DNA of 63,744 nt from Candidatus Hadarchaeota archaeon (lineage in GTDB: Archaea; Hadarchaeota; Hadarchaeia; Hadarchaeales; JAWBSP01), in assembly GCA_964632175.1 (NCBI GenBank), contig CAZWBJ010000004.1:1-63744 (forward strand). The letters run 5' to 3'. The position numbers and the translations under genes were made by a program. The first letter of the stretch is position 1. Each line of letters opens with the position of its first letter. The notes beneath the pieces were generated by a model, which made no database searches, had not been told where the DNA came from, and saw nothing but the letters and a program-made list of their open reading frames with translations. Of the stretch, positions 1 through 20,044 are shown in pieces.

Positions 1-2
1 TG

Positions 3-122
3 GATCCCGGCTTCAGGGTGTGCGTGGACGGGCCCGTTTTCGAGGGGGAGGAGATTGAGGGCACGGACTTTGGGAAGGCGAAGAGGGACGCCTCTGGGAG
101 GAGGGAGGAGCTTGCTCGTTAG
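3..122 (+). CDS. pyrK: 3' end of a gene truncated by the window edge, probably the PyrK-like electron-transfer subunit of dihydroorotate dehydrogenase
   Basis: Frame 3 reads DPGFRVCVDGPVFEGEEIEGTDFGKAKRDASGRREELAR, with stop TAG at 120-122. A VC.DGPVF C-terminus is typical of PyrK-type subunits, and the gene sits directly upstream of pyrC/pyrD. It is absent from the ORF track because its start is off-window. Confidence 0.45.
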   Translation, partial: DPGFRVCVDGPVFEGEEIEGTDFGKAKRDASGRREELAR

Positions 123-1323
123 AGGGAGGCTGCTCACGCCCGCAGGGCTCGTGGAGGGAACCATAAGGGAGGAGGGTGGAAGGATAGTGGAGATCTCTAG
201 GGAGGGGGACGGGGAGGCTCTGGACTTCAGCGGGCCCGGGCTGGTGATCCTCCCCGGGCTGATCGACATGCACGTCCACCTCAGGGACGAGCTCCTCTCC
301 TACAAGGAGGACTTCACCTCTGGAACCTCCGCTGCTGCTGCAGGGGGGTTCGTCCTAGTCGGGGACATGCCCAACACGAGGCCCCCCGTCAACTCGCTGA
401 CGAGGCTGGAGGAAAGGGAGAGGCTGGCGGCGGGGAAGGCGCTGGTGGACTACGGGCTCTACGTGGGGGTGGGGCCACCTGAGGGAACGGAGAGACTCTC
501 GCTCGGCCTAAAGGTATTCATGACCTCCGAGTACTACTCGGAGAGGAGGGGGGAAACCATCGGAGCGCTGGGGTATGCGGAGCGGAGAAAAAGGTTGGTG
601 GTCGTCCACGCCGAGAACCCCAAGCTCTACCAGGAGGGTAGGCTCGGGATGGCAGGAACACCCGAGGCGGAGGCCGAGGCGGTGAGGGAGATATGCGCGC
701 AGGGGTTGAGCAGGTTGCACCTCACGCACCTGTCCTCCAGGGCGGGACTGGAGGCCGTCAGGGGAGCCACCTGCGACACCTGTCCCCACTACCTCCTGCT
801 GGGGGGCCAGGAGCTCGGGTCATTCGCCAAGGTACATCCCTCCATTAAGAAAAAAGAGGACTCGGATGCGCTACTTCAGGCCATCAGTGAGGGAAAGATC
901 CAGGCGATAACCTCAGACCATGCCCCGCACCTGCCGGAGGAGAAGGGGGACCCGATCACCGCGCCCGGAGGCTTTCCCGGGCTGGAGACCACCCTGCCGC
1001 TCCTCCTGACGCTGGTGAACAAGGGGTTACTCTCGCTCGAGCAGCTGGTGAAGTTGTGCAGCACCAACCCCGCAAGAATCCTGGGTCTGGAGGGCTTCGG
1101 GTCCATCGAGCCGGGAAAGTTCTGCAGCCTGACCGTGGTCGACCTGAAGGCGGAGGGGGAGATAAAAGCCGAAAGGTTCCACAGCAAGAGCAAGTTTACT
1201 CCCTTCGAGGGATGGAGGGTGAAGGGAAAGCCGGTAGCCACCATTGTGAGGGGGAGGCTTGTGATGCACGGAGGGGAGATCCTGGAAAAACCCGGCTGGG
1301 GGAGGAATGTGAGGATGCTATGA
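112..1323 (+). CDS. pyrC: dihydroorotase (amidohydrolase superfamily)
   Basis: Part of ORF 55..1323. Motifs DMHVHLRDE and ITSDHAPH are present, and the N-terminus LLVRGRLLTP..G..EGGRIVEI is typical. I prefer TTG at 112, which overlaps the upstream stop at 120-122. The ORF-track start at 55 (TTG) is the alternative. Confidence 0.85.
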   Translation: MLVRGRLLTPAGLVEGTIREEGGRIVEISREGDGEALDFSGPGLVILPGLIDMHVHLRDELLSYKEDFTSGTSAAAAGGFVLVGDMPNTRPPVNSLTRLEERERLAAGKALVDYGLYVGVGPPEGTERLSLGLKVFMTSEYYSERRGETIGALGYAERRKRLVVVHAENPKLYQEGRLGMAGTPEAEAEAVREICAQGLSRLHLTHLSSRAGLEAVRGATCDTCPHYLLLGGQELGSFAKVHPSIKKKEDSDALLQAISEGKIQAITSDHAPHLPEEKGDPITAPGGFPGLETTLPLLLTLVNKGLLSLEQLVKLCSTNPARILGLEGFGSIEPGKFCSLTVVDLKAEGEIKAERFHSKSKFTPFEGWRVKGKPVATIVRGRLVMHGGEILEKPGWGRNVRML

Positions 1324-2222
1324 CGCTCTCCGTGAAGGTGGGGGGACTCAAGCTCCGGAATCCCTTCATCCTCGCCTCCGGGATCCTCTCGCACGGCTCC
1401 CTCCTGAAGCGGGCAGCGGGGGCGGGGGCGGGGGCTGTGGTAACCAAGAGCTTGACCCTTGAACCGAGGGAGGGATATCCCACGCCCGCGCTCGTGGCCT
1501 TTGAGGGGGGGTTCGTAAACGCCATGGGTTTGCCCAATCCTGGGTGTGAGGAGTACCTGCGAACCGACCTGCCCCTTGCCAAGGAGGGGAAGGTGCCGGT
1601 AATCGTGAGTCTCGCCGGCTCTCATGAGGGGGAGTTCGAGAGGATGGCCGTGCTGGCGGCGGATGCGGGGGCGGATGCCTTGGAGCTAAACCTCTCCTGC
1701 CCGCACGCAGAGAAGAGAGGGCTGGAGCTCGGCCAGGATCCCGCGATCGTGAGGAAAATCGTCCGGAGGGTCAGATCCTGCACCAGCCTTCCGATATGGG
1801 TCAAACTCGGGCTATGCGATTCGCTCATCGATTCGGCGCTGGCCTGCCAGCAGGAGGGGGCCCAGGCGGTGGTGGCCATCAACACCCTGAGATCCATGAT
1901 CATCGATGTGGATGCAAGGAGGCCCACTCTCTCCAACCTCTTCGGCGGGCTTTCTGGTCCCGCCCTCCGGCCCGTAGCCGTCAGGTGCGTTTTTGAACTG
2001 TACGAGAAACTCTCCATCCCCATCATCGGGTCGGGGGGAGTGATGGGGTGGAGGGACGCGGTGGAGTTCATGCTTGCAGGTGCGGCTGCAGTGCAGGTCG
2101 GGTCGGCCGTGGCGATCAAGGGTTTGCAGATTTTCCGAGAGCTCTGCGACGGGCTGGGAGCTTATTTAAAGAAGGAGGGGTTTTCCTCCCCGACGAACCT
2201 CGTCGGCCTCGCCCATCGCTGA
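1320..2222 (+). CDS. pyrD: dihydroorotate dehydrogenase catalytic subunit (class 1B-like)
   Basis: An internal ATG at 1320 gives MTLSVKVGGLKLRNPFILASG...NAMGLPNPG...LNLSCPH. It makes an ATGA overlap with the pyrC stop (1321-1323). Confidence 0.9.
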   Translation: MTLSVKVGGLKLRNPFILASGILSHGSLLKRAAGAGAGAVVTKSLTLEPREGYPTPALVAFEGGFVNAMGLPNPGCEEYLRTDLPLAKEGKVPVIVSLAGSHEGEFERMAVLAADAGADALELNLSCPHAEKRGLELGQDPAIVRKIVRRVRSCTSLPIWVKLGLCDSLIDSALACQQEGAQAVVAINTLRSMIIDVDARRPTLSNLFGGLSGPALRPVAVRCVFELYEKLSIPIIGSGGVMGWRDAVEFMLAGAAAVQVGSAVAIKGLQIFRELCDGLGAYLKKEGFSSPTNLVGLAHR

Positions 2223-2311
2223 CGGAATCTTCTCTCACCATCATGTGTTCAGCTTGGTGCCCAGACTCGCGGAAAGTCTTTCTTCAAAATATCGTCGAAA
2301 TGCTGTGTTTC

Positions 2312-2330
2312 GTGGCGTTACTTAGTAACA
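2312..2330. repeat. degenerate copy of the GTTAC-N4-GTAAC palindromic motif (3-nt spacer)
   Basis: GTGGCGTTACTTAGTAACA. It shares the GTGGC flank with the 7952/8002 copies. Located in the pyrD-pyrG intergenic region. Confidence 0.6.
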
Positions 2331-2340
2331 TGAATGGGAT

Positions 2341-2366
2341 TTGTCCGTTACCATAGTAACGGAAAG
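2341..2366. repeat. palindromic motif copy
   Basis: TTGTCCGTTACCATAGTAACGGAAAG. Centre lies about 57 nt upstream of the pyrG GTG. Confidence 0.8.
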
Positions 2367-2410
2367 AAAACCCGAACTCTTTTTACGCGGCTCTCACACA
2401 TAAGATTTCG

Positions 2411-4012
2411 GTGAAGTATGTCGTCGTCACCGGCGGCGTGATAAGCGGGCTCGGGAAGGGGATAGCCACCGCCTCCCTCGGGAAGATTCTGCAGTCGAAG
2501 GGCATCAAGGTGACGGCGATCAAAATCGACCCCTATCTCAACGTGGATGCGGGGACCATGAACCCCTTCGAGCACGGGGAAATCTTCGTCACGGAGGACG
2601 GGGGGGAGATCGATCAGGACATGGGGCACTACGAGCGCTTCCTAAACCTGAACCTGACCAAGGAGCACAACATCACCACAGGCCAGATCTACAAACAGGT
2701 GATCGAGGCCGAGAGGAGGGGGGAATACCTGGGCAAGACCGTCCAGATCATCCCGCACGTCACCGACGCCATAAAGGAGCGCATAAGGAGGGTGGCCAAG
2801 CAGAGCGATGCCGAGGTCTGCCTGGTGGAGATAGGCGGCACGGTGGGAGACATAGAGGGAATGCCCTTCTTGGAGGCGGTCAGGCAACTGAGGCTGGAGG
2901 AGGGCCCAAACAACGTCGTCTTCGTCCATGTCACCTTGGTTCCCTCTCTGGAGGTGGTGGGGGAGCAGAAGACCAAACCCACCCAGCATTCCGTCAGGCT
3001 GATGATGGAGGCCGGGATAATGCCCGACCTCCTCCTGTGCAGGTGCAGGACCCCCCTCACACCGGAGGCAAGGAGAAAAATCTCGCTCTTCTGCAACGTC
3101 CCCGAGAGTGCCGTCTTCTCGGCCGTAGATGCCGAAACCATATACGAGGTCCCCCTGCTGCTCGAGCGGGAGGGCGTGGGGGAGAGGCTGCTTGAGAGGC
3201 TGGGACTCAGGGCGAGGGGAGGCGACCTGAGCGAGTGGGCGAGGCTGGTGGAGAGGGCAAAGCAGGCGAAGGAAAAGGTGCGGGTGGCGATGGTGGGTAA
3301 ATACGTGAGGATCGCCGACACCTACCTGAGCGTCAACGAAGCCCTCAAGCATGCGGCCGCCTCCCTGGGGGTTTCGGTCGAGATAAATTGGATCGAGGCC
3401 GAGAACCTGGAGACGGGCGACGTTTCAGCCCTGAGGGGGTATCAGGGAATCGTGGTTCCAGGGGGCTTCGGGGCAAGGGGGGTGGAGGGGAAGATAAGGG
3501 CCATCCAGTTCGCGAGGGAGTGCGGGGTTCCCTTCCTCGGCCTGTGCTTTGGCTTCCAGCTCTCCGTGGTGGAGTTCGCCAGGAACGTGCTTGGGCTCAG
3601 GAGGGCGCACACTGCCGAGGTGGATCCCGAGACCCCCCATCCCGTGATCGACCTCCTCCCGGAACAGAAGAAGGTGAAGGAGCTGGGGGGCACCATGCGG
3701 CTGGGAGCGCACGAAATAGTCATCGCGCGCGGCACCAAGAGCTACTCCATCTACAAGACCACCCTCATCAGGGAGAGGCACAGGCACAGATACGAGGTGA
3801 ACCCCAAGTACATCCCGAGGCTAAGGAAAGGGGGGCTGGTCTTCTCGGGGAAGTCCAGGGACGGGAGGAGGATGGAAATCTTGGAGCTGCCGGGACACCC
3901 CTTTTTCCTGGCCACCCAGTTCCACCCCGAGTTCACCTCCAGGCTCGAGCGTCCCTCCCCTCCCTTTCTGGCCTTTTTGGAAAGTGCGAGGGCCTTCAGA
4001 GCCTCTTCATGA
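2411..4012 (+). CDS. pyrG: CTP synthase
   Basis: 533 aa. Canonical N-terminus [18 protein letters not shown] and a C-terminal glutamine amidotransferase domain ([15 protein letters not shown]). Confidence 0.97.
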
Positions 4013-4838
4013 ACTCTAGGAAGTAGCTCTGCCCCGCCGCAACTACGGCTCCGTGCAGCCCCGCCTCCTCCCCAAGGCTAGAGAGCTCTATCTTGGGAAG
4101 AGCATTCACCGCATACTCACCTACCAACTTTCTCACGGGCCCCAAGATCTGCTCCTTGCCCGCCAGGGCTATCGCCCCGCCGACCGCTATCACCTCCGGA
4201 TCATAGGAATTTATAACGTTGGCGAAACCGATGGCGTTCAGCCTCCCGATTTCCTCGAGCAGGGTTAGGGCCCGCTTCTCGCCCTTCCTAGCCTTCTCCA
4301 AGAGTTCCTCGGGAGTGAGCGGGTATCCCCTTAGCGCGGTGAAGTTTTTTATGCCCTCGCCCGAGCAGTACGCCTCCCAATGGCCCCTCCTCCCACAACT
4401 GCACTTGAGTTCCCCTTTCAGATCGATGGTATAGTGCCCGACCTCATGGGCGTTCCCGTCCTTCCCCAGTAGGAGCCTCCCATCCACGTACACCCCCGCC
4501 CCGACTCCCCCCCCCAAATTCACGAAGACAAAATTATCCACCCCTTTTCCTATTCCGAACTCATGTTCCCCCAGCACGGCGGCGACGCAATCGTTGATGA
4601 GGTAGACCGTGGTGCCCAGCTTTTTCTGAAGGGTGGGAACAACGGGCACCCTCTTGAAGGGAAGGTGCACGGGGTTGACCAGCTCCCCTTTCTTGTAGTC
4701 CATGGGACCGAAGGAGGCCACACAGAGGCTATCAAGCTCGGAGGGCTTTATCCCCTCCTTCTTGCAGAGAGTTTGGGAGAGAGAAACCAGCTGTCTCAAA
4801 AAGCCCTCCAGACTTTCACGGCTGGTGGGCTCCTTCAC
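3996..4838 (-). CDS. ROK-family sugar kinase (glucokinase-like)
   Basis: ROK signature [20 protein letters not shown] and the zinc motif [14 protein letters not shown]. The in-frame sequence upstream of the GTG start (up to about 4913) still encodes the ROK phosphate-1 motif YLGIDVGAVKVRAAL but contains no ATG/GTG/TTG (see findings). Confidence 0.8.
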
Positions 4839-4932
4839 CTGATAGAGAATTTCCTTCCCGTCGGAAAGAGCCGCCCTAACCTTGACCGCTCCAACATCTA
4901 TACCTAGGTAGATGCTCCCCCTCTAATTCTGG

Positions 4933-5814
4933 ATGATAGAGATTATAAGCAGATTTGACCCGTGGGGGGATCCCCTCTGTACCTGCTCGCCCAAATACTC
5001 CCTCAACCCCTACACGGGCTGCCAGCACCGCTGTCTGTACTGCTACATCACCTCCTACATTCCCAGGGCGTTCGAGTGCAGACCGAAGAAGGACCTCCTT
5101 CAGAGGGTGCGGAGGGACCTGGGGAAGCTGGACCGGCGCCTCCCCATAAGCCTCTCCAACTCCAGCGACCCCTATCCCCCCCTAGAGCGCGAACTCGGGC
5201 TCACCAGGAAGTGTCTGGAGCTGATCGGGAGGGCTGGGCTCGCAGTTCAGATCATTACCAAATCCGATCTCGTCGCCAGGGATGTCGACCTTCTGAGCAG
5301 GATGCGCTCGGTGGTCAGCTTCACCATCACCACCCTGAACCCCAGGCTTGCCCGAAGGCTCGAACCGAACGCTCCCCCGCCCGAAAGGAGGCTGAGGGCG
5401 GTGGGGGTGATTTCGAAGAAGGGAATTCCCGCCACCGTGAGGCTCGATCCGCTCTTTCCGGGCCTGAACGAGGAGGAAATTGAGCGGGTGGTCAGGGCCG
5501 CGGCGGGGGCGGGGGCGGTTCACGTGACGGCCTCCACCTTCAAGCCTCGCCCCGACTGCTGGCAGAGGATGATGCTGGCCTTCCCGGAATTCTGCAAAAA
5601 GGCGAGGGAGCTGTATTTCGTGGAGGGGGAGAGGCACAAGACCGGGCGCTACCTTCCGGCGGCCATGCGGAGGGAACTGCTACTGAGGGTGAGGGAGGCC
5701 TGCGAAGCCTCCGGCCTAACCTTTTCCGTGTGCAGGGAGGGGATGCGAGAGCTGAACACCGCTCCCACCTGCGACGGGACTCACCTGCTACCGAGAGAAT
5801 CCCGGAGCCTTTGA
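4933..5814 (+). CDS. radical SAM protein (SplB / DNA-photolyase-like family)
   Basis: 293 aa with a CxxxCxxC cluster motif, GCQHRCLYCY, near the N-terminus. Confidence 0.8.
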   Translation: MIEIISRFDPWGDPLCTCSPKYSLNPYTGCQHRCLYCYITSYIPRAFECRPKKDLLQRVRRDLGKLDRRLPISLSNSSDPYPPLERELGLTRKCLELIGRAGLAVQIITKSDLVARDVDLLSRMRSVVSFTITTLNPRLARRLEPNAPPPERRLRAVGVISKKGIPATVRLDPLFPGLNEEEIERVVRAAAGAGAVHVTASTFKPRPDCWQRMMLAFPEFCKKARELYFVEGERHKTGRYLPAAMRRELLLRVREACEASGLTFSVCREGMRELNTAPTCDGTHLLPRESRSL

Positions 5815-6302
5815 ACCTCCTCCTCAAGCCATTCGTACTTTCCCAGCTGGGAGAGGAGCGAGAGGAGATATCTGTAATCCGAGTCCTTGCTCCCCCGCCG
5901 TGATACCACCTCCACCGCCTGCTTGAGGCTCACCTCCCCCGTGGACAGCCTCACGGGCATTTCCAAGATTCTCTTGATGGCCTCGATCCGTTGCGCGGGG
6001 GAGAGGAGGGCATCGATGACGTGGATCTCGATGGGCTTCCAAGCGGGGTTGGAAAGGAACTCGAGCACTTCGTCGCTGGCCTCCGGTGGAACTGCCACCA
6101 CGCTTTTGCCCAGCTGAATGTGGGGGATTTTGGACAGGAGACCGGGGGTGAAGGCCTTGTAGGTTCTGCCACCCCGCCTTTTGATGTTGAAATACCCGAA
6201 CAGCTTGCGGTAGAAGCGAACCTTCAGGGATCCCCTGGCACTTAGGTCAAAGCTTATCACCTTCGCCCAGACCCCCTTTTTTCCAGTGGAACTCTCCTTC
6301 AT
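5781..6302 (-). CDS. hypothetical protein, possibly with a Cas2/VapD-like ferredoxin-fold N-terminal domain
   Basis: 173-aa ORF. The pattern VISFDLS..KVRFYRKLFGY...GKSVVAVPPEASDEVLEFL..IEIHVIDAL suggests a beta-alpha-beta-beta-alpha-beta fold. There is no confident family match by eye. A palindromic motif copy overlaps its putative TATA position. Confidence 0.5.
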   Translation of the reverse strand: MKESSTGKKGVWAKVISFDLSARGSLKVRFYRKLFGYFNIKRRGGRTYKAFTPGLLSKIPHIQLGKSVVAVPPEASDEVLEFLSNPAWKPIEIHVIDALLSPAQRIEAIKRILEMPVRLSTGEVSLKQAVEVVSRRGSKDSDYRYLLSLLSQLGKYEWLEEEVQRLRDSLGSR

Positions 6303-6313
6303 ACTTAGCAGGT

Positions 6314-6336
6314 TTGTACGTTACTATAGTAACATC
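6314..6336. repeat. palindromic motif copy with a TATA centre
   Basis: TTGTACGTTACTATAGTAACATC. Centre lies about 25 nt upstream of the ATG of the minus-strand ORF 5781..6302. Confidence 0.75.
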
Positions 6337-6381
6337 AATTAGGAAGAGAAATCAGAATACCCTCCAGTGGAAAGAAGGGGG

Positions 6382-7398
6382 TTACTCAAGGACGGAGAGG
6401 TAGGCCCGACCTTGGGGGGTTTCAAAATGCTGGCGCACTGGGGAAATCAACCTGTCAAGATAATCCACAAGGGCGAGCTTCAAATCGAGCGGATGGATCC
6501 TACCCTTCCGGAATTCCTCCTCGAGCTTGGGATACTGGTCAAAATGGAGCACCTCCCCCGATTTCAGCCTGACCTCAAACCCCCCAAAGGCCTCGAAGAC
6601 CAAGAACCTGATGTAGTCCATCACGGGGTTTATCGGGTCGCGCTCGGGGCAGTAGGCCTTCCTTATTTTTCTTTCGATCTCTTCCCTTGAGTCGTGCACG
6701 AAGATGCAGGTTTCAGGCTTGCTCTTACTCATCTTCTCCTCCGGCGTTTTCCCCGAAAGGCTCATGAGCATGTGGTGGTGAACCGCCACCGGCTTCCTCC
6801 TCCCGAGCTTGGGCGCCACCTCCCTGGCCAGCATGTTGGCCCTGCGCTGATCCATCCCAAGCTGGCAGATCTCCACCCCAAGGTAGAAAATGTCGGCCAC
6901 CTGCATGCTGGGGTAAAAAAGCCAGGCAGTGGGGTTCTCCAGGCTCTCCTCCCTCCCGGCGATGGTGAGGGCCCTCATCGCCCTCCTGACGTTGTGGTTC
7001 TTGGCCACCGAGAGGACGAGCTTCCAGTACTCGGGGTCGCGAACCAGATCGGAGGACCAGACGACCTCCACCTGATCCATGGGTACCCCCGCCGCCCTCC
7101 ACACCTCGATGAAGTACTCCCCCACCTTCCTTATGCGCTCGAAATCCCCACCCATCTTTTCGTTTATCCAGGCGAACCAGTCGGCCAGAAGGAGCTTGAA
7201 CCTGAGCCCAGCCTTCAGGAGCTTTTTCAGGGTGAGGGGGCGGTAGATTCCGAAGGGGAGGTGGGCCAGACCCGAGGGCTCGAAGCCGTCGTAGGCGAGA
7301 GGGTGCTCCTCCGTCTCCAGCAGGTCCCTGAGCTCCTCCTCGGTGACGATTTCTTCCGCGACCCCCTTTATCAGCTGAAGCCTAGTTTCAACGTCCAC
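6382..7398 (-). CDS. tyrS: tyrosyl-tRNA synthetase (archaeal type)
   Basis: 338 aa, colinear with M. jannaschii TyrRS as I recall it (EELR..L......AY.GFEPSG..HL, LLAD..A.LN.K, KMSKS). Confidence 0.93.
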   Translation of the reverse strand: MDVETRLQLIKGVAEEIVTEEELRDLLETEEHPLAYDGFEPSGLAHLPFGIYRPLTLKKLLKAGLRFKLLLADWFAWINEKMGGDFERIRKVGEYFIEVWRAAGVPMDQVEVVWSSDLVRDPEYWKLVLSVAKNHNVRRAMRALTIAGREESLENPTAWLFYPSMQVADIFYLGVEICQLGMDQRRANMLAREVAPKLGRRKPVAVHHHMLMSLSGKTPEEKMSKSKPETCIFVHDSREEIERKIRKAYCPERDPINPVMDYIRFLVFEAFGGFEVRLKSGEVLHFDQYPKLEEEFRKGRIHPLDLKLALVDYLDRLISPVRQHFETPQGRAYLSVLE

Positions 7399-7876
7399 CC
7401 TTCAGCCTCCACGCCAGTTCTGTCACCTTTTTCCCCAGTCCGAAGCACTCTCTCCTCGCCTGCTCATCCGGGGGGCCGTTGGCTGCCGCCCCGTAGTGGC
7501 CACCCGTGGAGAGGGGATCCCCGCAGACGACCATTCCGTGGATGAGCATGGACTGAAGGATGGAGAGCATGGTGGTCTCTCTCCCCCCCGCCCTGTGTCT
7601 GGAGGAGCAAAAGGCGGCGCCAACCTTCCCCTCCAGCTTGCCCCTGACCCTTATGGACTCGTCGAGGAAGCGCTTGACTTCCGCCGCCGGCCCGCCGAAG
7701 TAGGAGGGACTCCCGATGATGATTCCATCGGCCTCCACAAGCTCTTCCACCCTCGCTCGCGTGATCTCCTCCAAGACGACCTCGCCCCCCGCCTCCTTGA
7801 CCCCCGCCGCCACCTCTTCAGCCATGGCCTTGGTGTTGCCGCCGCGGGAGAAGTACAGAACGAGGATCTTTACCAT
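7388..7876 (-). CDS. flavodoxin-fold FMN protein (WrbA / NADPH-dependent FMN reductase-like)
   Basis: 162 aa. MVKILVLYFSRGGNTKAMAEEVA...GIIIGSPSYFGG is the flavodoxin-like FMN-binding pattern. It overlaps the tyrS start by 11 nt. Confidence 0.8.
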   Translation of the reverse strand: MVKILVLYFSRGGNTKAMAEEVAAGVKEAGGEVVLEEITRARVEELVEADGIIIGSPSYFGGPAAEVKRFLDESIRVRGKLEGKVGAAFCSSRHRAGGRETTMLSILQSMLIHGMVVCGDPLSTGGHYGAAANGPPDEQARRECFGLGKKVTELAWRLKGGR

Positions 7877-7951
7877 CAGAACCTAGTCCCGGGGTAGATA
7901 ATCTAGCAAAGTTTGCCCCACTGAAAGCGGCGTGTTCCCCGGTCAGGCGTA

Positions 7952-7977
7952 GTGGCGTTACTATGGTAACGGACAAG
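7952..7977. repeat. palindromic motif copy (26-mer, identical to 8002..8027)
   Basis: GTGGCGTTACTATGGTAACGGACAAG. Located in the rnfB-flavodoxin intergenic region. Confidence 0.9.
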
Positions 7978-8001
7978 GTAACCGTCAAGCGTGTTCCAGT
8001 T

Positions 8002-8027
8002 GTGGCGTTACTATGGTAACGGACAAG
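8002..8027. repeat. palindromic motif copy (26-mer, identical to 7952..7977)
   Basis: GTGGCGTTACTATGGTAACGGACAAG. Exactly 50 nt from the first copy and 9 nt from the rnfB stop. Confidence 0.9.
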
Positions 8028-8035
8028 ATGTCAGG

Positions 8036-8845
8036 CTAGGCCGGCACTTGGATAGGAACAAGTTGGAGGGGCTGGGCCCACTTGATGACTTTCCGCGGGC
8101 AGACTTCCACGCACTTCCCGCAACCCGTGCACAGGACGGGGTCAATGGAGATCCTCTCACCAACGAACTTTATTGCCCCCGTCGGACAATTTTTCTCGCA
8201 GAGTCTGCACTTTATGCATCCCCTGGTGCAGGAGGCCACCACTACCTTTCCGGGCTCCGGGGAGTTGCAGTCTACAAGCACCTTCGAGTTTCTGGGGATC
8301 AGCCTAAGCACTCCCCTCGGACAAACCCGGACGCATATCCCGCACCCCCGGCATTTCTTCCAGTTGATTTCTGGCAGCCCCCCGACCATTTTTATCGCCC
8401 CGAAAGGACAGGCCCTCTCGCAGTCCCCCAAACCTAGGCAGGCGTACCTGCAGACCGTCGGCCCGCCCTGAAGGAGGGAGGCGGCGAGGCAGCTCCTCTC
8501 CCCCTGATACCTGAAACGGGGCTTGGATCCGCCAGCGCAGGCCCTGGCCGCTACCGCCCACTCCACTTGTGGGGAAAGATGCACCTTGAGGTAGGAGGCC
8601 ATCCTCGCTCTCTCCGGCGCGGTCAGGACCCGGCAGCGGTCGAGGAGTTCGGGGTTGGAGACGAGCGCCCGGGCGTAGTCCTCACATCCCTTGAACCCGC
8701 AGGCGCCGCAGTTTGAGCCGGGGAGCATCCCCCTCACCTCCTCCACCCTCTCGTCCACCTGAACCGCGAACCTGCGCGAGGCCCAAACCAGCAGGAGGGA
8801 AAAGCCGAAGCCCACCAGACCAAGGGAGAGGGATTCCCCTATCAT
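8036..8845 (-). CDS. rnfB: Rnf complex subunit B (polyferredoxin)
   Basis: N-terminal membrane anchor, then GSNCGACGFKGCEDYARALV, followed by several CxxCxxCxxxCP 4Fe-4S motifs. Confidence 0.88.
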   Translation of the reverse strand: MIGESLSLGLVGFGFSLLLVWASRRFAVQVDERVEEVRGMLPGSNCGACGFKGCEDYARALVSNPELLDRCRVLTAPERARMASYLKVHLSPQVEWAVAARACAGGSKPRFRYQGERSCLAASLLQGGPTVCRYACLGLGDCERACPFGAIKMVGGLPEINWKKCRGCGICVRVCPRGVLRLIPRNSKVLVDCNSPEPGKVVVASCTRGCIKCRLCEKNCPTGAIKFVGERISIDPVLCTGCGKCVEVCPRKVIKWAQPLQLVPIQVPA

Positions 8846-9417
8846 CCCCCTATCCCCGCGAACCCCTGGAAGGAAAGCGCCAGGAGCCCCGCCGCTATGA
8901 AGGCGATGGGCGCCCCCTGCAGAGAGCGGGGCAGCTCCTCGTAGGCCAGCCTCTCCCTGATCCCGGCTAGCAGGACGATGGCCAGGGTGTAACCGAGGCC
9001 GGTTGCCAGGCCGTTGACGAGGGAGGCCGGGAGCGAGTACCCTTCCTCGAAGTTTATCAGGTTGACGGCTAGGATGGCGCAGTTGACGGTGATGAGGGGG
9101 AGATAGATCCCGAAGGCCGAGTAGAAGCGGGGCATGGTCTTCCGCATGATGATTTCCACCAGCTGGACGAAGGAGGCGATGACCAGGATGAAGGCCACGA
9201 TGCGCATGTACTGGATGCCGAAGGGAGTGAGGAGGAAGTGGTTGATGAACCAGGTCACCGCCGAGGAGGAGACGGCCACGAAGGTCACGGCCATCCCCAT
9301 CATGGCCGAGTTCCTGAGGTTGGAGGAGATGCCGAAGTAGGAGCAGAGGCCGATGAACCTAGTGAGCACAATGTTGTTTATCAGCAGGGTCACCAGGAAA
9401 ATGGAAAGGAGGCCCAA
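8842..9417 (-). CDS. rnfA: Rnf complex subunit A
   Basis: 191-aa polytopic protein. The N-terminus LLINNIVLTRFIGLCSYFG and the NCAILAV motif are typical of RnfA/NqrE. 4-nt overlap with rnfB. Confidence 0.92.
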   Translation of the reverse strand: MGLLSIFLVTLLINNIVLTRFIGLCSYFGISSNLRNSAMMGMAVTFVAVSSSAVTWFINHFLLTPFGIQYMRIVAFILVIASFVQLVEIIMRKTMPRFYSAFGIYLPLITVNCAILAVNLINFEEGYSLPASLVNGLATGLGYTLAIVLLAGIRERLAYEELPRSLQGAPIAFIAAGLLALSFQGFAGIGG

Positions 9418-10023
9418 CTAGATCACCCCCAGCTTTTTCAGTAGGGCGAGCATCCCTCCCATCACCAGGAAACCGCCTGGGGAGAGGAGAAAGCCGGAGA
9501 CCGGCTGGGAGAGGAGAACCAGGGAGCGGCCGAAAAGGGAGAGCCCTCCCGAGCCTAGGAGTTCCCGGATGAAGGAGATGGAGACGATGGCCAGACCGAA
9601 GCCCGCCGTCATCCCGCACGCATCCGCCAGGCTTTCGAGCACGGAGCGCTTGGAGGAGAAGGCCTCCACCCTCCCCAGCACGATGCAGTTGACGGTAATG
9701 AGGGGGAGGAAGATCCCAAGGTGCTCGCGGAGGGTGGGGGAATAGGCCCTGATGATCAGCTCGGTGACGGTGACAAAGCTGGAGATCACCACCACGAAGA
9801 TGGGTATCCTGACGTTCTTGGGAATCCAGCGCCTGGAGAAGGAGGTGACGAGGCAGGAGCCCAGGAGGACGAACCCGAAGGCCAGGGTCATCCAGATGGC
9901 ATCCTCCACCGACTTGGAGATGGCCAGGAAGGGGCAGAGGCCCAGCAGGATGACGAAGACGGGGTTCTTGCGCAGGATCCCCTTTTCCGCCTCCCACCTC
10001 AGGTTCGGCCTCTCCTCAGCCAC
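9418..10023 (-). CDS. rnfE: Rnf complex subunit E
   Basis: 201 aa. NPVFVILLGLCPFLAIS and ITVNCIVLGR are typical of RnfE/NqrD. It abuts rnfA. Confidence 0.92.
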   Translation of the reverse strand: MAEERPNLRWEAEKGILRKNPVFVILLGLCPFLAISKSVEDAIWMTLAFGFVLLGSCLVTSFSRRWIPKNVRIPIFVVVISSFVTVTELIIRAYSPTLREHLGIFLPLITVNCIVLGRVEAFSSKRSVLESLADACGMTAGFGLAIVSISFIRELLGSGGLSLFGRSLVLLSQPVSGFLLSPGGFLVMGGMLALLKKLGVI

Positions 10024-10528
10024 GGGTAAGCGCCTCCCTCACTGCCTCCAGAATGGCCCGGGAGGTTATGGTGGCACCCGTCACTGCCTCCACCTTTCCC
10101 TGGGGCTTGAAGGCTAGATCCCCCCATCCCAGGTTCTCGAACTGGGAGAGGTAGGAGGGCTCGGTTGCCCTGGAGCCTATCCCCTTGGTTTCGCTGTGGG
10201 AGAGCACCCTTACCCCCCTCACCGTGTTGTCGGGATTTATCCCCACCAGCACCTTGATGGCTCCGCCGTAGCCCTTGGTCTCCACCTCCACCGCCCTCCC
10301 CACCAACTGGTTGTCGCGGAAACAGTAAAAGATGCCGTTCTCCTCCCGGAACTGGCACCCGGGGAAGATCTCCCCCACTTTCGCCTCCCTCTCCCTCCTC
10401 TCGGCCTCCTCTATCCTCGGCTCGGTCATCTTGTGCACGTAGCCGAGAATCAGCCCCCAAATCACGCAGGTGAGGGTGAGGGCGAGGACGGGCTTGAAGG
10501 CTTTCATCTCCCCTTTCCACGAACACAT
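10016..10528 (-). CDS. rnfG: Rnf complex subunit G (FMN-binding)
   Basis: N-terminal anchor, SETKGIGS, and the flavinylation-type motif VTGATITSRA. An alternative ATG at 10507 gives MKAFKPVLAL. Confidence 0.88.
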   Translation of the reverse strand: MCSWKGEMKAFKPVLALTLTCVIWGLILGYVHKMTEPRIEEAERREREAKVGEIFPGCQFREENGIFYCFRDNQLVGRAVEVETKGYGGAIKVLVGINPDNTVRGVRVLSHSETKGIGSRATEPSYLSQFENLGWGDLAFKPQGKVEAVTGATITSRAILEAVREALTRG

Positions 10529-10603
10529 TTTAGGCCCATGTTACAGCGACGTGGGCGATTGGGGGTTAGCAACCGCACTTCAGTACGGGAATCCTAGGTG
10601 ACA

Positions 10604-10625
10604 TGGCGTTACTATGGTAACGCCA
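10604..10625. repeat. palindromic motif copy (perfect 9+4+9 palindrome)
   Basis: TGGCGTTACTATGGTAACGCCA. Located in the apbE-rnfG intergenic region and flanked by AAAATTTT. Confidence 0.85.
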
Positions 10626-10687
10626 AAATTTTGAGGCTCCCGTTTTTTCGAGTCTTGATTATGCCCTGACTCTCACAGCAGCCGCCT

Positions 10688-12745
10688 TCATGGGGACAGT
10701 AACGCACCCCAGTTCTCGGTGGTGCGAATTTCTCCGGCAGAGGTCACGAAGAGCCCGTGGGCCCCCAGGTTTTCGAGGAGCTCTCCCCCGGCCGCGGGCC
10801 CTAGGACGAAGGTTGCCGTGCTCAGGGCATCCGCATCCACCCCCCTCCTCGCGACCACCGTCACGCTCTGGCACCCCGTGGCTGGCTCACCCGTTCGGGG
10901 GTCGATGATGTGGTGTATCCTCCGGCCGCCGAGGAAGTACACCCTCACGTAATCGCCCGAGGTCGAGACCGCCCCCTCCTTGAGCTCTATGGTCTGCAGG
11001 ATCTCCTCCGGCTTCCGCGGGTGCTGGATTCCGATCCGCCAGCTCTTGCCGAAGACCCTTATCTCCCCCCCTATCTGCACCATCCCCGCCTCAATCCCAG
11101 AAGACCTGAGGATCTCACAGGCCCGGTCGGCGGCGTACCCCTTGGCTATCCCACCCAGCGTCACCTGCATTCCCACCCTCTCGAACCTCGCCCTTCCATT
11201 CTCCAGCGCGAGCCACTTCCAGTTGACCAGCGCTCTCGCCTCCTCCAGCTCCCCCGCCGAGGGCAGCTTTCCCGTCTCCTTCACCTTTTCCATCCAAAGG
11301 TCCACCAGCGGCTTGACGGTGGGGTCAAAGGCCCCCCCGCTGAGCTCGGCGTAGCGGAGGGCTTCTTGGAGCACTTGGAGGGTTTCGGGAGAGAGGTCCA
11401 CCCAAGAGCTTGAGTGGTTGAGCCTCCAGATCTCCGTCCCCTCCTTTTCGCTTGAGAGGAGATCCTCCAGCCTGTGGATTTCCTGAAGGGCCCGCTCCAC
11501 CGCCTCCCCCGCCCGCCCGAGGTTCTCGTCGAGGGCGGTCACCCGAACCAACGTGTCCATGGCGAGGTCCTCTGCCTTCACGTACCCGGCCCCGTACTCG
11601 AAGCGGGGAAGGGAAAGGGCGGTGAGCAGCAGGGGGAGGAGGAAGAGGAGGCAGGCCAGACCGATCACCGTTCTCCGGCCTTCGCCCTTCACTCTGGGGA
11701 GAAGAAGGAGGAGGGAGGCGAGGAGGGACTGGGTGAGGAGGAAGCTGAGGGAGAGGCCGAGGAGCCCGAACCTGCGCCCGAGCAAGATTAAGGAGAGGAG
11801 CTGGAAGGGGACGGCCGCTGCGTAGGCCGAGGAGGCCCCAGCTGGCTTCTGCTCGGAAAGGAGCTCGGCGCTGCACACCTGGGAAACGGTCGCCGGGACG
11901 AGGGAGAGCAGGATGATTCTCAGGGCGGTTGTGGAACCCGAGTAGTCGGGGAAGAGCTGGGGGACTAGGAGGGAAAGGGGGAAGGAGGCGATCAGCAGGA
12001 GGAGGGAGGATCTAAGGGCCAGAGAGCGCACCCCCTTGGAGCCGGTGGAGAGGGAGTAGAAGAAGAGGGTCTGGGGGAGGGCGGCGAGGAGGTAGAAGAA
12101 CCTAGTGGAGAAGTGATACAACCCCAAGACCTCCATCCCCAGCAGCCTTCCCGCCACCGCTTTGTCCAGGAAACCGAGGGAGGCCGAGCCCAAGTCCGAG
12201 AGCAGGTAGCCCGCGATTTTGGGGCTGGGTTTTGGCGTTACCATAGTAACGGACAAACGCCGGAGGAGGAAGGGGACGGAGGGAAGGAAGTGGGAGAGGA
12301 AGAGGCCGAAGAAGATGAGCCAGGTCCTGCCTCCCCAGAGGTAGAGGAGGACGGGGAGGGGAAGGAGGGCGGAGCGGAAGAGCCAGAGGAGGAGGTACCC
12401 TCCGGGATCCTGCCGTGAGAGCTCGAGGTGGAAGGAAAGGGAGAAGAGAGAGAGGCCGAAGACGAGCAGGCCGGCCCAGGGGTTGAGGAGGGAAAGGGCA
12501 GCGCCAGCGACGGTGGAGGAGAGGAGGGTCAGGTAAAAGGAGAGCTGCGGGGAGGGGGACCTCGAGACCACCAGCGACTTCCCCAAGCCCAGGCAGGCAG
12601 CGGTTGAGACGAGCATGGAGAGGGAGTAGAGCCAGCCCACCTCCCCGAAGGCGAAGGGATGGAGGAGGAGGGCGAGGGTGAGCCAGAAGAGGGCGCCGGA
12701 AAGGGTGGCCAAGACCTGCGCCGCCGCCACCAGCTTTAGGTCCAT
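10688..12745 (-). CDS. apbE: fusion protein: polytopic MOP/polysaccharide-flippase-like membrane domain (about 390 aa, about 12-13 TM) plus C-terminal ApbE FAD:protein FMN transferase
   Basis: The C-terminal part carries ApbE signatures (AFDPTVKPLVDLW, TLGGIAKGYAADRA, SGDY, HHIIDPRTGEP, DADALSTA). The N-terminal part is L/S-rich and polytopic, with flippase-like segments (GRLLGMEVLGLYHFS; LLLHPFAFGEVGWLYSL). It is one uninterrupted ORF of 685 codons. Confidence 0.8.
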   Translation of the reverse strand: MDLKLVAAAQVLATLSGALFWLTLALLLHPFAFGEVGWLYSLSMLVSTAACLGLGKSLVVSRSPSPQLSFYLTLLSSTVAGAALSLLNPWAGLLVFGLSLFSLSFHLELSRQDPGGYLLLWLFRSALLPLPVLLYLWGGRTWLIFFGLFLSHFLPSVPFLLRRLSVTMVTPKPSPKIAGYLLSDLGSASLGFLDKAVAGRLLGMEVLGLYHFSTRFFYLLAALPQTLFFYSLSTGSKGVRSLALRSSLLLLIASFPLSLLVPQLFPDYSGSTTALRIILLSLVPATVSQVCSAELLSEQKPAGASSAYAAAVPFQLLSLILLGRRFGLLGLSLSFLLTQSLLASLLLLLPRVKGEGRRTVIGLACLLFLLPLLLTALSLPRFEYGAGYVKAEDLAMDTLVRVTALDENLGRAGEAVERALQEIHRLEDLLSSEKEGTEIWRLNHSSSWVDLSPETLQVLQEALRYAELSGGAFDPTVKPLVDLWMEKVKETGKLPSAGELEEARALVNWKWLALENGRARFERVGMQVTLGGIAKGYAADRACEILRSSGIEAGMVQIGGEIRVFGKSWRIGIQHPRKPEEILQTIELKEGAVSTSGDYVRVYFLGGRRIHHIIDPRTGEPATGCQSVTVVARRGVDADALSTATFVLGPAAGGELLENLGAHGLFVTSAGEIRTTENWGALLSP
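12233..12256. repeat. palindromic motif copy inside the coding sequence
   Basis: TGGCGTTACCATAGTAACGGACAA. On the minus strand it reads in frame as ..S V T M V T P K.. in ORF 10688..12745. Confidence 0.85.
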
Positions 12746-12773
12746 CGTTTATCGCCGGACTCGAAATTTTAGT

Positions 12774-12847
12774 GGGCCCGTAGTCTAGCCTGGATAGGAC
12801 ACAGGCCTGCGGAGCCTGGAACTCGGGTTCAAATCCCGACGGGCCCG
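12774..12847 (+). tRNA. tRNA-Arg (anticodon GCG)
   Basis: Hand-folded cloverleaf: acceptor GGGCCCG/CGGGCCC, D-arm with GG, anticodon stem CAGGC/GCCTG with loop CTGCGGA, T-arm TCGGG-TTCAAAT-CCCGA, discriminator G. CCA is not encoded. Confidence 0.9.
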
Positions 12848-13615
12848 CTAACCCGAGGTGTGCGTGACCTGAATGGTGGAATGGAATGGACCGGTGAGCA
12901 CTTCGATCCTCACCTGGTTCTCCCCCCTCCTCAGCAGAAGGAAAGCACTGAAGAGGTTCTCATCCTCTATCGCCCAGCCCTGGAGGGTCAGCGTCTGTCT
13001 GAACCAGTAGGCGAGGGTGGTGACGTTTCTCTCCGGGCTCCCGTAGGTGAGTTGGACCCGGTTTCCGGAGACGGAGTGGGAGAGCATGACTGAATCGGGA
13101 TATCTGGGGATGGGCTCCCACCCACTTGCCTGATCCGAAGAGGGAAGGAGCTCCCACGGGGCTAGGCTCGAGGGCTCTCCCCTGGCAAGAAGATAGAAGG
13201 AGCCGTTCTCGTTCCCAGCCGCCCCCACTCCGACCCCCTCGTTTTCTCTTGCGAAGATGAACCAGCCGAGCTCGAGGGACCCCGTTGGCAACCCGATGGT
13301 CATCAGCCCCTGCATGCCTACCAGGGCGTAGCCCCTGTTTTTAAGAATCCCCCGGTACCACTCAAGCACCTCCCCCGCGGCCTTTTTCACCCAGAAAGAA
13401 GAGAGGTTCTCCACCCCTCCAAAGGGAAACTGAGAAGGGAGAAAGGAGGGCAGGTTTTCCGGAACGGAGCCGGGGTAGATTGGGATTTCCTTCTCCTCCC
13501 CAACATTTTCCCCCGCCTCCTTCCGGGTCTCCCCAGCTGATTTCAGGTGTAAGGCGAGATAGCCCGCGCCGACCACGACTAGGGCGAGAACTGCTAGGGC
13601 TGGGGCTTTCCTCAT
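12848..13615 (-). CDS. signal-anchored extracytoplasmic protein with two internal repeats (hypothetical)
   Basis: 255 aa. N-terminus MRKAPALAVLALVVVGAGYLALHL. Two related modules: IPIYPGSV...VLEWYRGILKNRGYAL and IPRYPDSV...LAYWFRQTLTLQGWAI. It abuts the PrsW-like gene. Confidence 0.6.
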   Translation of the reverse strand: MRKAPALAVLALVVVGAGYLALHLKSAGETRKEAGENVGEEKEIPIYPGSVPENLPSFLPSQFPFGGVENLSSFWVKKAAGEVLEWYRGILKNRGYALVGMQGLMTIGLPTGSLELGWFIFARENEGVGVGAAGNENGSFYLLARGEPSSLAPWELLPSSDQASGWEPIPRYPDSVMLSHSVSGNRVQLTYGSPERNVTTLAYWFRQTLTLQGWAIEDENLFSAFLLLRRGENQVRIEVLTGPFHSTIQVTHTSG

Positions 13616-14191
13616 CTATTTTTCCCCGGCTAAGGTTTTGCCCTGCCTGGAGGATCGGGTGAGCAGGAAGGGGAAGACCAGCAGCCCCAGCATAAGCTCG
13701 CACAATCCCTGCACTTCCAGCCGAGAGGGAAAGGGACTCGCGGTGTTCCAGAGGGAATGCAGAAGGACCGCCGCCGAGTATGCTAGAACCCCCCAGCCTC
13801 TCCGCCTGCAGAAGAACCCCCAGTAGAGGCCAAGCCCGACGAGACCTGACCCGAGCGCATGGGAGAACAAGGCCAGGAACCTGAGCCCCCCGAACTCTCC
13901 GTATCCGAGGTTTTCCACCACGCCGAAGAGGAAGCCGCAGAGGTATCCAAGCGCGTACCAGCTCCCCCCCGCTTCCAGCCAAGGCATCTTCCTCACCCCG
14001 CGGCGGTAGGTGAGCGCCAGCATGAGGGGCCCGAGCACCTTCAGGAACTCCTCGACCAACGGGGCCTCCACACGCTGCCGGATGAGGGCGTCGTGGAAGA
14101 GGGAGTGGATTTCGGCCGCGAGAAGGGAGGCCGGTAGAACCGCCACCAAGACGGCGAGGAGAACGAGCAGGTTGAGAGCTTCTTCCTTCAC
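13616..14191 (-). CDS. PrsW-family intramembrane protease-like protein
   Basis: 191-aa polytopic protein with PrsW-type motifs EEFLK (EExxK), FGVVE (FxxxE), SHALGSG and HSLWN (HxxxN). The GTG start overlaps the upstream stop (GTGA). Confidence 0.7.
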   Translation of the reverse strand: MKEEALNLLVLLAVLVAVLPASLLAAEIHSLFHDALIRQRVEAPLVEEFLKVLGPLMLALTYRRGVRKMPWLEAGGSWYALGYLCGFLFGVVENLGYGEFGGLRFLALFSHALGSGLVGLGLYWGFFCRRRGWGVLAYSAAVLLHSLWNTASPFPSRLEVQGLCELMLGLLVFPFLLTRSSRQGKTLAGEK

Positions 14192-19228: not shown

Positions 19229-20044
19229 ATGCCCAGACCGAGAGCTCGTTCGATCTCCATCTGTTCCGGTAAGGGTGGCACGGGAAAGACCGTCCTGACG
19301 GCCAACTTGGGCATCGCGCTGGGCTCGCTGGGTAAAAGGGTGGTCATCATGGACGCCGACCTAGCCATGGCCAATCTCTCCATCGTGATGGGGATGCATC
19401 GGTGCGAGGTGACCCTCTTCGATGTCCTGAAAGGGAAGGCAACGCTGGACCAAGCTCTCTACAAGAACTATGGGGTGGAGGTCCTCCCGACGGGCTTCAG
19501 GTTTGAGGAGGTTCAGGAGATGCTGGGCGGCGTGAGAAGGGAGAAGGTGGAGGAGATAATTTCCGAGCTGCTGAACAGGGCGGAGATTCTCCTGCTAGAT
19601 GCGGCGGCCGGGATTCAGGAGACCTCCCTCCTCCTGCTGGCTGCGGCTAGGGAGGCCTTGCCCGTGAGCACACCCTCCTACGCCAGCCTCGTGGACGTTT
19701 ACAAGACCATCAGGATAGCCAACCTGCTCAGAGTGTGGACGAGGGGCTTGGTTCTGAATAGGATGGGCACCACAGACCTTACTCGGGAGGAGGTGCAGGC
19801 CTTCATGGGGAGGGCGGTGAAGGGGTTGCCCATCCTCGCGGAAATCCCGGAGGATCCGAGGGTGAGGGAGGCGGAGAGGGAGGGGGTACCCGTGCTGGTG
19901 TACGATCCCAGCTGCCCGGCTTCGGAGGCCATTCAGGGGCTGGCCAGGATAGTCGCGGGGGAGGAGCACCTGCCCTACATCCCTGTTGAGGAAAGGGAGA
20001 TAAGGGAAACCTCTCGGAGGCTGCTGGCCGCCCTTCTTGGATAA
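19229..20044 (+). CDS. minD: MinD/ParA-family P-loop ATPase
   Basis: 271 aa with the deviant Walker A motif SGKGGTGKTVLTANLG, followed by VIMDADLAMANL. Confidence 0.85.
   Translation: MPRPRARSISICSGKGGTGKTVLTANLGIALGSLGKRVVIMDADLAMANLSIVMGMHRCEVTLFDVLKGKATLDQALYKNYGVEVLPTGFRFEEVQEMLGGVRREKVEEIISELLNRAEILLLDAAAGIQETSLLLLAAAREALPVSTPSYASLVDVYKTIRIANLLRVWTRGLVLNRMGTTDLTREEVQAFMGRAVKGLPILAEIPEDPRVREAEREGVPVLVYDPSCPASEAIQGLARIVAGEEHLPYIPVEEREIRETSRRLLAALLG

Follow-up and report, generated by a model that had tools for sequence, protein, structure and literature searches.

How chromosomal origins are organised and how chromosomes are segregated is poorly understood beyond a few cultivated archaea, and for the Hadarchaeota the subject is a blank. 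A stretch of DNA from Candidatus Hadarchaeota archaeon (assembly GCA_964632175.1, contig CAZWBJ010000004.1, positions 1-63,744; "the window" below means this whole stretch of 63,744 nt) raises the matter through a short palindrome, GTTAC-N4-GTAAC (GTTACNNNNGTAAC), that recurs along part of its length. What reads these palindromes, and what do they do there? An earlier note on the same DNA had offered three readings: an operator for a homodimeric transcription factor controlling a local regulon, an RNA hairpin of the repetitive extragenic palindromic (REP) type, and a miniature mobile element. Here, we compare the palindromes with those of related genomes, a comparison which shows them to be under purifying selection, and we suggest that they are duplex-DNA sites of a dimeric protein, probably the product of an adjacent orphan gene of 173 amino acids (aa), that form an origin-proximal array resembling those of parS or SegB. 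We hold this proposal to be possible, though somewhat short of an even chance.

Exact matches to GTTACNNNNGTAAC number six in the window, at 2347, 6320, 7957, 8007, 10608 and 12237, against a mean of 0.01 in dinucleotide-preserving shuffles, none of 100 of which reached six; a variant with a 3-nt spacer, GTTACTTAGTAAC, at 2317 makes a seventh copy. No other arm spacing from 0 to 12 nt gives a match in the window, and neither does the everted arrangement of the arms. When up to two mismatches are tolerated, just four extra matches appear, against 6.3 expected in total; this is the level of chance, and the sites therefore have no penumbra of weaker relatives. The coordinates and sequences quoted in the earlier note were right, those of the identical 26-mers (7952-7977, 8002-8027) and of the perfect 22-nt palindrome (10604-10625) among them, and so was the clustering that it had reported: all seven copies lie inside 9.9 kb (2317-12256), and the other 51.5 kb has none; the approximately 4 kb that a nearly identical strain (L081, below) adds to the left of the window has none either. 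Uniform placement would give such clustering with a probability of about 1e-4, by a rough estimate. Both pentamers are scarce in the window (GTTAC 16 and GTAAC 18, against about 50 expected from base composition, or roughly threefold rarer), a scarcity that the dinucleotide-preserving control suggests is largely ordinary avoidance of TA. The spacer of the N4 copies had been described as flipping between TATG and CATA independently of the flanks; it is not free, being always YATR with an invariant central AT. The half-site flanks of the window are of two types, TGGC (A) or TTGTCC (B) before GTTAC, which pair freely (A+B', A+A', B+B') without keeping complementarity.

Read from left to right, the series begins with the degenerate copy GTTAC-TTA-GTAAC (2317..2329), 94 nt after the pyrD stop codon and 81 nt before the pyrG start; this N3 form, GTTACTTAGTAAC, is also found in a relative (L001) at 18750. 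The copy TTGTCC-GTTAC-CATA-GTAAC-GGAAAG (2341..2366, core 2347-2360) lies 50 nt upstream of pyrG, with a TATA-like box, TTTTTA, between it and the start codon. The central copy, GTTAC-TATA-GTAAC (6320..6333), stands midway between two inverted boxes of the origin recognition box (ORB) type, 17 nt upstream of the 173-aa gene, and its spacer is TATA in all five of the GC-rich lineages aligned. Next comes GTGGC-GTTAC-TATG-GTAAC-GGACAAG (7952..7977), 80 nt before the start codon of flavodoxin, and its identical 26-mer (8002..8027), 15 nt after the rnfB stop and within a tandem duplication of about 50 bp. The perfect 22-nt palindrome TGGC-GTTAC-TATG-GTAAC-GCCA (10604..10625) is 66 nt from the ApbE stop and 79 nt from the rnfG start. 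Measured edge to edge, the gap between a window site and the stop codon before it is 15-124 nt, and that to the following start is 17-130 nt, values that replace the 16-95 and 25-140 nt given previously. Most copies are between genes, as had been claimed, but the last (12233..12256, core at 12237) is not: it lies in frame, encoding SVTMVT, within an open reading frame (ORF) of 685 aa (10688-12745, minus strand). This ORF joins a multi-pass membrane domain of about 385 aa, which we take, judging by eye, to be flippase-like, to an ApbE flavin-transferase domain, an architecture conserved in the Hadarchaeota. Just upstream of its start, on the opposite strand, is a tRNA gene (12774-12847, plus strand, 62 bits).

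The earlier note had overlooked the context of the copy at 6320, which is the centre of an ORB-palindrome-ORB module resembling an origin of replication. On its left, an ORB-like box with its G-string, TCCACTGGAAAAAAGGGGG (6272..6290, minus strand), overlaps TTCCAGTGGAACT (6281-6293, plus strand) and the first ~10 codons (SSTGKKG) of the 173-aa gene, for which one gene caller chooses a start 14 codons later. On its right, a second such box, TCCAGTGGAAAGAAGGGGG (6363..6381, plus strand), is inverted with respect to the first. Both boxes stand 29 nt from the palindrome, all three elements are centred on 6326.5, and the exact decamer TCCAGTGGAA occurs only twice in the 64 kb, namely in these two boxes. 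In the origin of Pyrococcus abyssi, TTCCAGTGGAACT is the mini-ORB 13-mer that overlaps ORB1, with TTCC and GAA cores (PMC1904270), and the left box contains it in identical form. The segment 6272-6381 thus has what marks an archaeal origin, at least two inverted ORB or mini-ORB boxes with a TTCC..GAA core. The stretch between the boxes is 72 bp and only moderately AT-enriched.

This module is not peculiar to the window, and its boxes are conserved in every lineage examined. Across five GC-rich lineages the only conserved parts of the spacer between tyrS and the 173-aa gene are the ORB, palindrome and ORB blocks, and the order ORB(-)/palindrome/ORB(+)/gene is also found in the AT-rich L003 and L004, where the palindrome has the derived form TTTTGTTAC-ACCC-ATAACAAAA. 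Among six contigs that encode distant homologues of the 173-aa protein (L211-L216), the module is present in L215 (GC 0.35, with an exact GTTACTATGGTAAC), L212 and L214, the last with the palindromes GTTAC-ATAT-GTAAC and GTTAC-ACGT-GTAAC, and in a degenerate form in L213. The distance from the start of the palindrome to that of ORB(+) is about 42-44 bp in most lineages, over a range of 35-60% GC, and 46-48 bp in L003 and L004; these two and L215 have a long AT-rich stretch. An orc1/cdc6 gene lies about 3.5-8.5 kb from the module in three relatives (3.5 kb in L001, 7 kb in L003 and 8.4 kb in L004), and no ORB pair was found elsewhere in the Hadarchaeota sequence examined. GC skew, tried as a test for an origin, simply follows gene orientation. 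From its sequence, the ORB pair at 6272-6381 is the probable oriC of the Hadarchaeota chromosome. A derived asymmetric element, TTTTTTGTTAC-ACCC-ATAACAAAAAA, was noticed besides in L003 (11146, 11251 and 11840), L212 (5) and L004 (8261, 11175, 11295, 11881 and 20781). Its copies all have one orientation, several of them 6-7 nt after stop codons, and one L004 copy stands behind an orc1-tRNA pair.

How far does the palindrome itself extend among relatives? The tyrS loci fetched, 80 in all, span the archaea; just two of them have the exact motif, those of the Hadarchaeota metagenome-assembled genomes L001 (11-12 copies) and L002 (8 copies), each in 21 kb; their tyrosyl-tRNA synthetases are 81% and 75% identical to that of the window, whose closest relatives were binned from hot-spring metagenomes. 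Look-ups of 173-aa homologues added L081/82, a 99.8%-identical strain, L085-88 (GC 0.49) and L089/90 (GC 0.48), and a metagenome scan added L143 and L163; all of these have the same core. At least six related lineages, of 48-60% GC, have it at orthologous positions. In every lineage there is a site in the spacer between tyrS and the 173-aa gene, and another upstream of flavodoxin and/or rnfG. L002, L086, L089, L143 and L163 likewise have a site between pyrD and pyrG, and the copy in the ApbE-fusion ORF is kept at the same offset in six lineages. The order of the genes around the sites is nonetheless rearranged, for example by an inversion of rnfGEAB in L002, L086 and L089. The flanks are uniform within a genome and differ by species (TGT|GTTAC in L001; TGTCT|GTTAC in L002, L086 and L089), and the number of copies in tandem at one and the same spacer is 1, 2 or 4 according to the species.

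Nine related loci contain 45 perfect cores and five cores with a single mismatch, where 3.8 of the latter are expected by chance; about four of the five look like genuinely decayed copies. Between species the spacer DNA around the cores is not alignable, whereas the 14-mer is invariant. Between the window and L081, 29 alignment columns differ in 16 kb, and 12 of these fall at 7890-7991, around the tandem copies, while none falls inside the two 26-mers; the palindromes here are perfectly conserved beside locally hypervariable DNA. A 10-bp indel (a duplication), at 10586, lies 20 nt from site 10608. The copy within the ORF is informative in another way. In six lineages the ApbE-fusion protein has VT[MI]VT at this place, and the codons that adjoin its core differ between the window and L002 only synonymously (TCC/TCT, ACG/ACA), which argues that the site is maintained at the level of the DNA. 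Two more distant ApbE-fusion homologues have a loop of about equal length without the VT[MI]VT peptide; the fused architecture is hence old, and the site arose within, or replaced, a loop. In a further homologue, P0049, VTIVT is followed by an insertion with AIVT, possibly a partial second palindrome within the ORF. Orthology of position, perfection of the copies and maintenance inside a gene together exclude a neutral or recently spread repeat, and as judged from these alignments the palindromes are shown to be under purifying selection. Against the miniature mobile element, copies that are orthologous across species and stand at about 45 perfect to 4 decayed indicate selection and not recent spread.

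What, then, might recognise them? The 173-aa gene (5781..6302, minus strand) adjoins the ORB/palindrome module in all the lineages examined, usually next to tyrS. A palindrome of the GTTAC...GTAAC type stands 5-65 nt upstream of it in most inspected contexts, those of L003, L004, L212, L214 and L215 among them, and in L003, L004 and L215 a second palindrome lies just past its stop codon. The distant homologues L211, L213 and L216 have no clear copy of the palindrome, L216 having just an ORB-like box, and the tyrS loci of L005 and L006, as far as fetched, show neither the gene nor the motif. The protein family is tiny: a search of 1.84 billion representatives gave 38 clusters at E<1e-3. The protein has no match in Pfam or NCBIfam even at E=10 and none in a sequence search of the PDB. 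Its AlphaFold model is confident (predicted local distance difference test, pLDDT, 88.7) and has an N-terminal beta-alpha-beta-beta-alpha-beta domain, which is ferredoxin-like and Cas2-like, and a helical C-terminal part with a beta-hairpin. A Foldseek search against the PDB gave only non-significant Cas2 and ferredoxin-fold matches, of which Cas2 proteins were the sole consistent neighbours, and a structure search of BFVD gave nothing. Because its gene is linked to the palindrome/ORB module, this protein is the best candidate binder, and judging by that linkage the reader of the palindromes is most likely this clade-restricted protein. The earlier note had listed it among several candidate regulators; it is the best candidate here, with a gene that travels with the palindrome in every lineage examined.

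Our proposal for how these elements work together is as follows. The palindromes would be recognised, in double-stranded form, by a sequence-specific homodimer whose monomers each read ...(TGTCY)GTTACYA. At the central site, the 173-aa protein would be bound between the Orc1/Cdc6 boxes of an ORB pair that would fire as an origin, and, coupled there to its own promoter, it would be autoregulating; the satellite sites, which it would also bind, span about +/-6 kb in the window and +/-6-10 kb in the relatives. The array, once bound, may mark, organise, partition or control the origin-proximal DNA, a role that would be centromere- or origin-organising and not that of a switch for the neighbouring metabolic genes. 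The distribution of the sites resembles that of centromere-type systems: the window has seven of them in the 10 kb about the ORB pair and none in its remaining 51 kb, and L001, L002, L086 and L089 have 4-12 within +/-6-10 kb. The metagenome scan, a single one made with the L002-type flavour (CTGTTACYATRGTAACAG), listed matches that were mostly in unrelated DNA and, from the samples of L143 and L163, another two loci. Among the matches listed were four contigs of one sample (138, 74, 54 and 5.6 kb) with seven copies of TGTCTGTTACYATRGTAACAGACA beside unrelated housekeeping genes. Copies thus exist beyond the locus as well, but on these four contigs, whose taxonomy is unverified, they are no denser than about 1 per 39 kb; near the ORB pair there is 1 per 1.4-2 kb.

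Several observations weigh against this proposal. No ATPase of the ParA/SegA type adjoins the 173-aa gene, and the Walker ATPase closest to it, at 19229-20044, belongs to the archaeal MinD subfamily. Neither sequence nor structure searches recognised a DNA-binding fold in the model of the 173-aa protein. An orc1/cdc6 gene is absent from the 64-kb window and from the fetched loci of L002, L086 and L089, and the flanking genes on both sides are transcribed toward the ORB pair; in Thermococcus litoralis and T. sibiricus, origins are located far from cdc6 (PMC4640148). The sites are almost all intergenic, unlike those of SegB and many parS sites, a bias that would match a tolerated selfish repeat or a transcription-linked element equally. 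Many copies are only 4-8 nt from stop codons, a hint of some function at the 3' ends of genes, and the species-specific flavours of the flanks imply concerted change of a sort typical of REP-like repeats.

Foremost among the alternatives, and in our view an unlikely one, is that the palindromes are operators at which a transcription factor, be it the 173-aa protein or some other, would occlude or assist promoters in a local or global regulon made up of pyrG, flavodoxin-tyrS, rnfGEAB, apbE and the factor's own gene. Dimeric regulators typically have sites of this 5-N4-5 palindromic form, and a dimeric DNA-binding protein is the best-supported part of the operator reading that the earlier note proposed. 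The copy always 17 nt upstream of the 173-aa gene is a classic signature of autoregulation, and in several species the centres of copies lie 32-48 nt from the starts of flavodoxin, rnfG and rps6e, about where an archaeal TATA box and its transcription factor B recognition element are found. Several neighbours, moreover, encode flavoproteins (flavodoxin, RnfG, ApbE, PyrD and an IDI2-like protein). The local regulon itself finds no support. When 52 sites in 13 loci were classified by our own gene calls, 25 were in tandem, 10 in divergent and 6 in convergent spacers, 3 were at locus edges and 8 were called as lying in coding sequence, the last being three copies in the ApbE ORF, one in L131 and, for the remainder, artefacts of start-codon calling. 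Sites in convergent spacers, several of which fill gaps of just 26-28 nt between two stop codons, and a site conserved inside an ORF are not what an operator predicts. Nor is the distance to the start codon fixed: some sites are 17-48 nt before a start, yet for the same gene it ranges from 17 to ~200 nt across species, and the window's TATA-like boxes for pyrG and flavodoxin are downstream of the sites. The genes beside the sites include pyr genes, tyrS, trpS, the pyruvate phosphate dikinase gene, an FMN-dependent dehydrogenase and rnf, and also hisF, rps6e, a CCA-adding enzyme and toxin-antitoxin pairs, a functionally unrelated set, in all types of spacer; the sites are thus specific neither to promoters nor to 3' ends. 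Lastly, sites of ~26 bits with almost no degenerate members are unlike those of ordinary regulons.

A regulon for Rnf or for flavin was rejected, given that rnfC and rnfD (20353-22646, minus strand), 10 kb off in the window, have no site. As a TATA box the palindrome would be at a fitting distance from the 173-aa gene and, in some copies, from flavodoxin and rps6e, but in L001 a Shine-Dalgarno sequence lies between site and start, TATA-like boxes of the window are found downstream, and CATG centres are not TATA-like. A common helical phase of the tandem copies was sought as well, without success, the spacings being 30-120 bp. There is some likeness, not used here as evidence, to the boxes of Rex, HcpR and FNR and to resolvase site I (outer TGTCYG, central TATA). 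The Rnf genes of the window are split, rnfCD lying ~10 kb from rnfGEAB (8036-10528, minus strand), beyond the archaeal MinD gene (19229-20044, TIGR01969). Orthologues of the MinD gene adjoin tyrS in L003 and L004, and just downstream of it in the window a small ORF (20215-20340, plus strand) encodes a CPxC...CP zinc-finger-like protein (KVYSCPRCGF...KSCP) with no family match.

Quite unlikely, too, is a REP-like extragenic repeat, originally selfish, that would act as an RNA or DNA hairpin at the ends of genes in termination, mRNA stabilisation or processing, and for which the Cas2-fold protein could be the nuclease. Several features nevertheless favour it. Extragenic copies are often 4-8 nt after stops, even between convergent genes; their number at one spacer varies by species, their flanks are homogeneous within each genome, and the tandem copies have hypervariable DNA and a 50-bp duplication beside them. 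The element of the AT-rich relatives reads T6-hairpin-A6 directly after stop codons, and the adjacent protein, as modelled, has a ferredoxin/Cas2-like fold of the nuclease type. Perfect palindromes of 22-24 nt have a predicted folding energy of -13 to -19 kcal/mol, and the L002-type 24-nt palindrome one of -15 to -19 kcal/mol. The stable hairpin, true of these perfect copies, fails for most copies of the window, which are hybrids (TTGTCC on one side, GCCA on the other) with unpaired flanks, stems of just 5-6 bp and energies of -3.5 to -6.8 kcal/mol at 37 C. The flank positions show mismatches and not G-U or compensatory pairs, and such free combination of half-sites fits two monomers on duplex DNA, not a structure-dependent element. 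No Rfam family matches at the palindromes (window 1-14000, E<=1), the sole match being the tRNA at 12774-12847. A repeat of this type would not be expected at orthologous positions, with an invariant core over 35-60% GC and hardly any decayed copies (45 perfect against ~4), nor in ten divergent spacers, nor inside an ORF where the copy is conserved at synonymous positions. Its local copy number is low, with none in 51 kb of the window, and no transposase of the HUH or RAYT (REP-associated tyrosine transposase) type was seen in the window or in the loci, which are partial genomes. The RNA hairpin of the earlier note is therefore weak, for its stems are short and one copy is conserved in a coding region.

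Site-specific recombination, with crossover in the central YATR by which modules or small cassettes are inserted or inverted, is very improbable: an AbiE pair in L143 and L163 does have copies on both sides, at the pyrD|pyrG spacer that in the window contains two copies next to each other, pairs of HEPN and nucleotidyltransferase genes in L112 and L142 end at a copy, the copy-flanked rnfGEAB block is inverted in L002, L086 and L089, and half-sites assort independently as a central crossover would yield, but the window and the loci showed no recombinase gene, tens of active sites per chromosome would be destabilising, the ApbE|rnfB junction of L086 has no site, breakpoints of synteny fall in spacers anyway, and the fixed geometry of the ORB boxes would be left unexplained.

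Two further observations are recorded in their own right. Toxin-antitoxin-like cassettes, of the AbiEi/AbiEii or the HEPN plus nucleotidyltransferase type, stand beside copies in L143 (5691-7568), L163 (1855-3697), L089 (13944-15810), L112 (5487-6175) and L142 (10122-10970). An unrelated repeat family, CTGCAGCTGTTACTATAGTAACAGC(G/A)C..., which was among the matches listed by the metagenome scan, is found on many contigs of ~42% GC from a few samples (L091, L095, L098, L101, L103, L106, L107 and others); it has an 18-mer in common by chance or convergence.

To return to the origin-proximal array that we favour, the locus supplies three things: a conserved candidate for an origin, the ORB pair between tyrS and the orphan gene; a second and unrelated cis element, in fixed geometry inside that candidate and repeated around it; and a small, expressible orphan protein that is testable against a defined 26-mer. 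If the 173-aa protein binds, it would represent a new pair of DNA-binding fold and site, and a handle on the organisation of origins in an uncultured phylum; if it does not, the palindrome would be a rare, low-copy and strongly selected archaeal extragenic repeat, still in need of an explanation. A bolder proposal, which we regard as doubtful, is that the orphan Cas2-fold protein and the GTTAC-YATR-GTAAC sites constitute a new origin-associated system of the archaea, one in which initiation would be licensed or controlled, or else a third prokaryotic system of partition or organisation beside ParABS and SegAB. Searches of the literature on Hadarchaeota origins and on the strings of the palindrome motif returned nothing, and no description was found of an origin with a second, non-ORB palindrome that is repeated around it.

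Of the systems already known, the boxes of regulators of the CRP/FNR type share the 5-N4-5 pattern, being two-fold symmetric with arms of 4-5 bp. The arms of the RbkR operator of Thermoplasmata and Thaumarchaeota, TTAC...GTAA, are similar to ours, with N10 spacing, at the promoters of riboflavin genes; the published forms (TTAC-N10-GTAA, TnnCA-N4-TGnnA and others) differ in spacing and target riboflavin genes, and the match was rejected (PMC5397151). No gene for either kind of regulator was identified here, and the context of our sites, unlike theirs, is not promoter-specific. Bacterial REP sequences and bacterial interspersed mosaic elements (BIMEs), with their RAYT, are palindromes of 20-40 nt outside genes, frequently just behind a stop codon, in variable tandem arrays and with a species-specific consensus; REPs exist in hundreds of copies, genome-wide, and many of these have diverged. 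The palindromes of the Hadarchaeota are, in contrast, few and nearly all perfect; they keep orthologous positions, one of them lies within an ORF, and no RAYT was seen.

The bacterial parS sites read by ParB are near-perfect palindromes of high information content that number from a handful to two dozen and cluster a matter of kilobases from the origin; their position is conserved between species and they work regardless of the local gene context. The present sites differ in belonging to an archaeon, in their sequence and in having no ParB (helix-turn-helix/CTPase) or ParA partner at the locus. The two boxes at 6272-6290 and 6363-6381 share with the archaeal oriC an inverted arrangement, the TTCC...GAA core and G-strings; the centre between them is moderately AT-enriched in the window, and orc1/cdc6 is nearby in three relatives and not adjacent in the window. 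The GTTAC palindrome is not an ORB; to our knowledge, no described archaeal origin has an unrelated palindrome exactly between its ORBs that is also repeated in the flanking 10-20 kb. SegB of the Sulfolobales has ~46 palindromic sites that are clustered near segAB/oriC1 and sparse elsewhere; it autoregulates, 84% of its sites are intragenic, and its motif is TCTAGA-S-TCTAGA, of 13 bp (bioRxiv 10.1101/2025.02.07.637068). That sequence is unrelated to GTTAC-YATR-GTAAC, and the motif was rejected as a match. The sites here differ in being almost all intergenic, and SegB is a ribbon-helix-helix protein encoded after the ParA-type segA, whereas this locus has no such pair and its candidate is Cas2-like. 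What the two have in common is the arrangement: a short palindrome that is densest next to the gene of its binder (here a candidate) and an origin (here a probable one), and sparse elsewhere.

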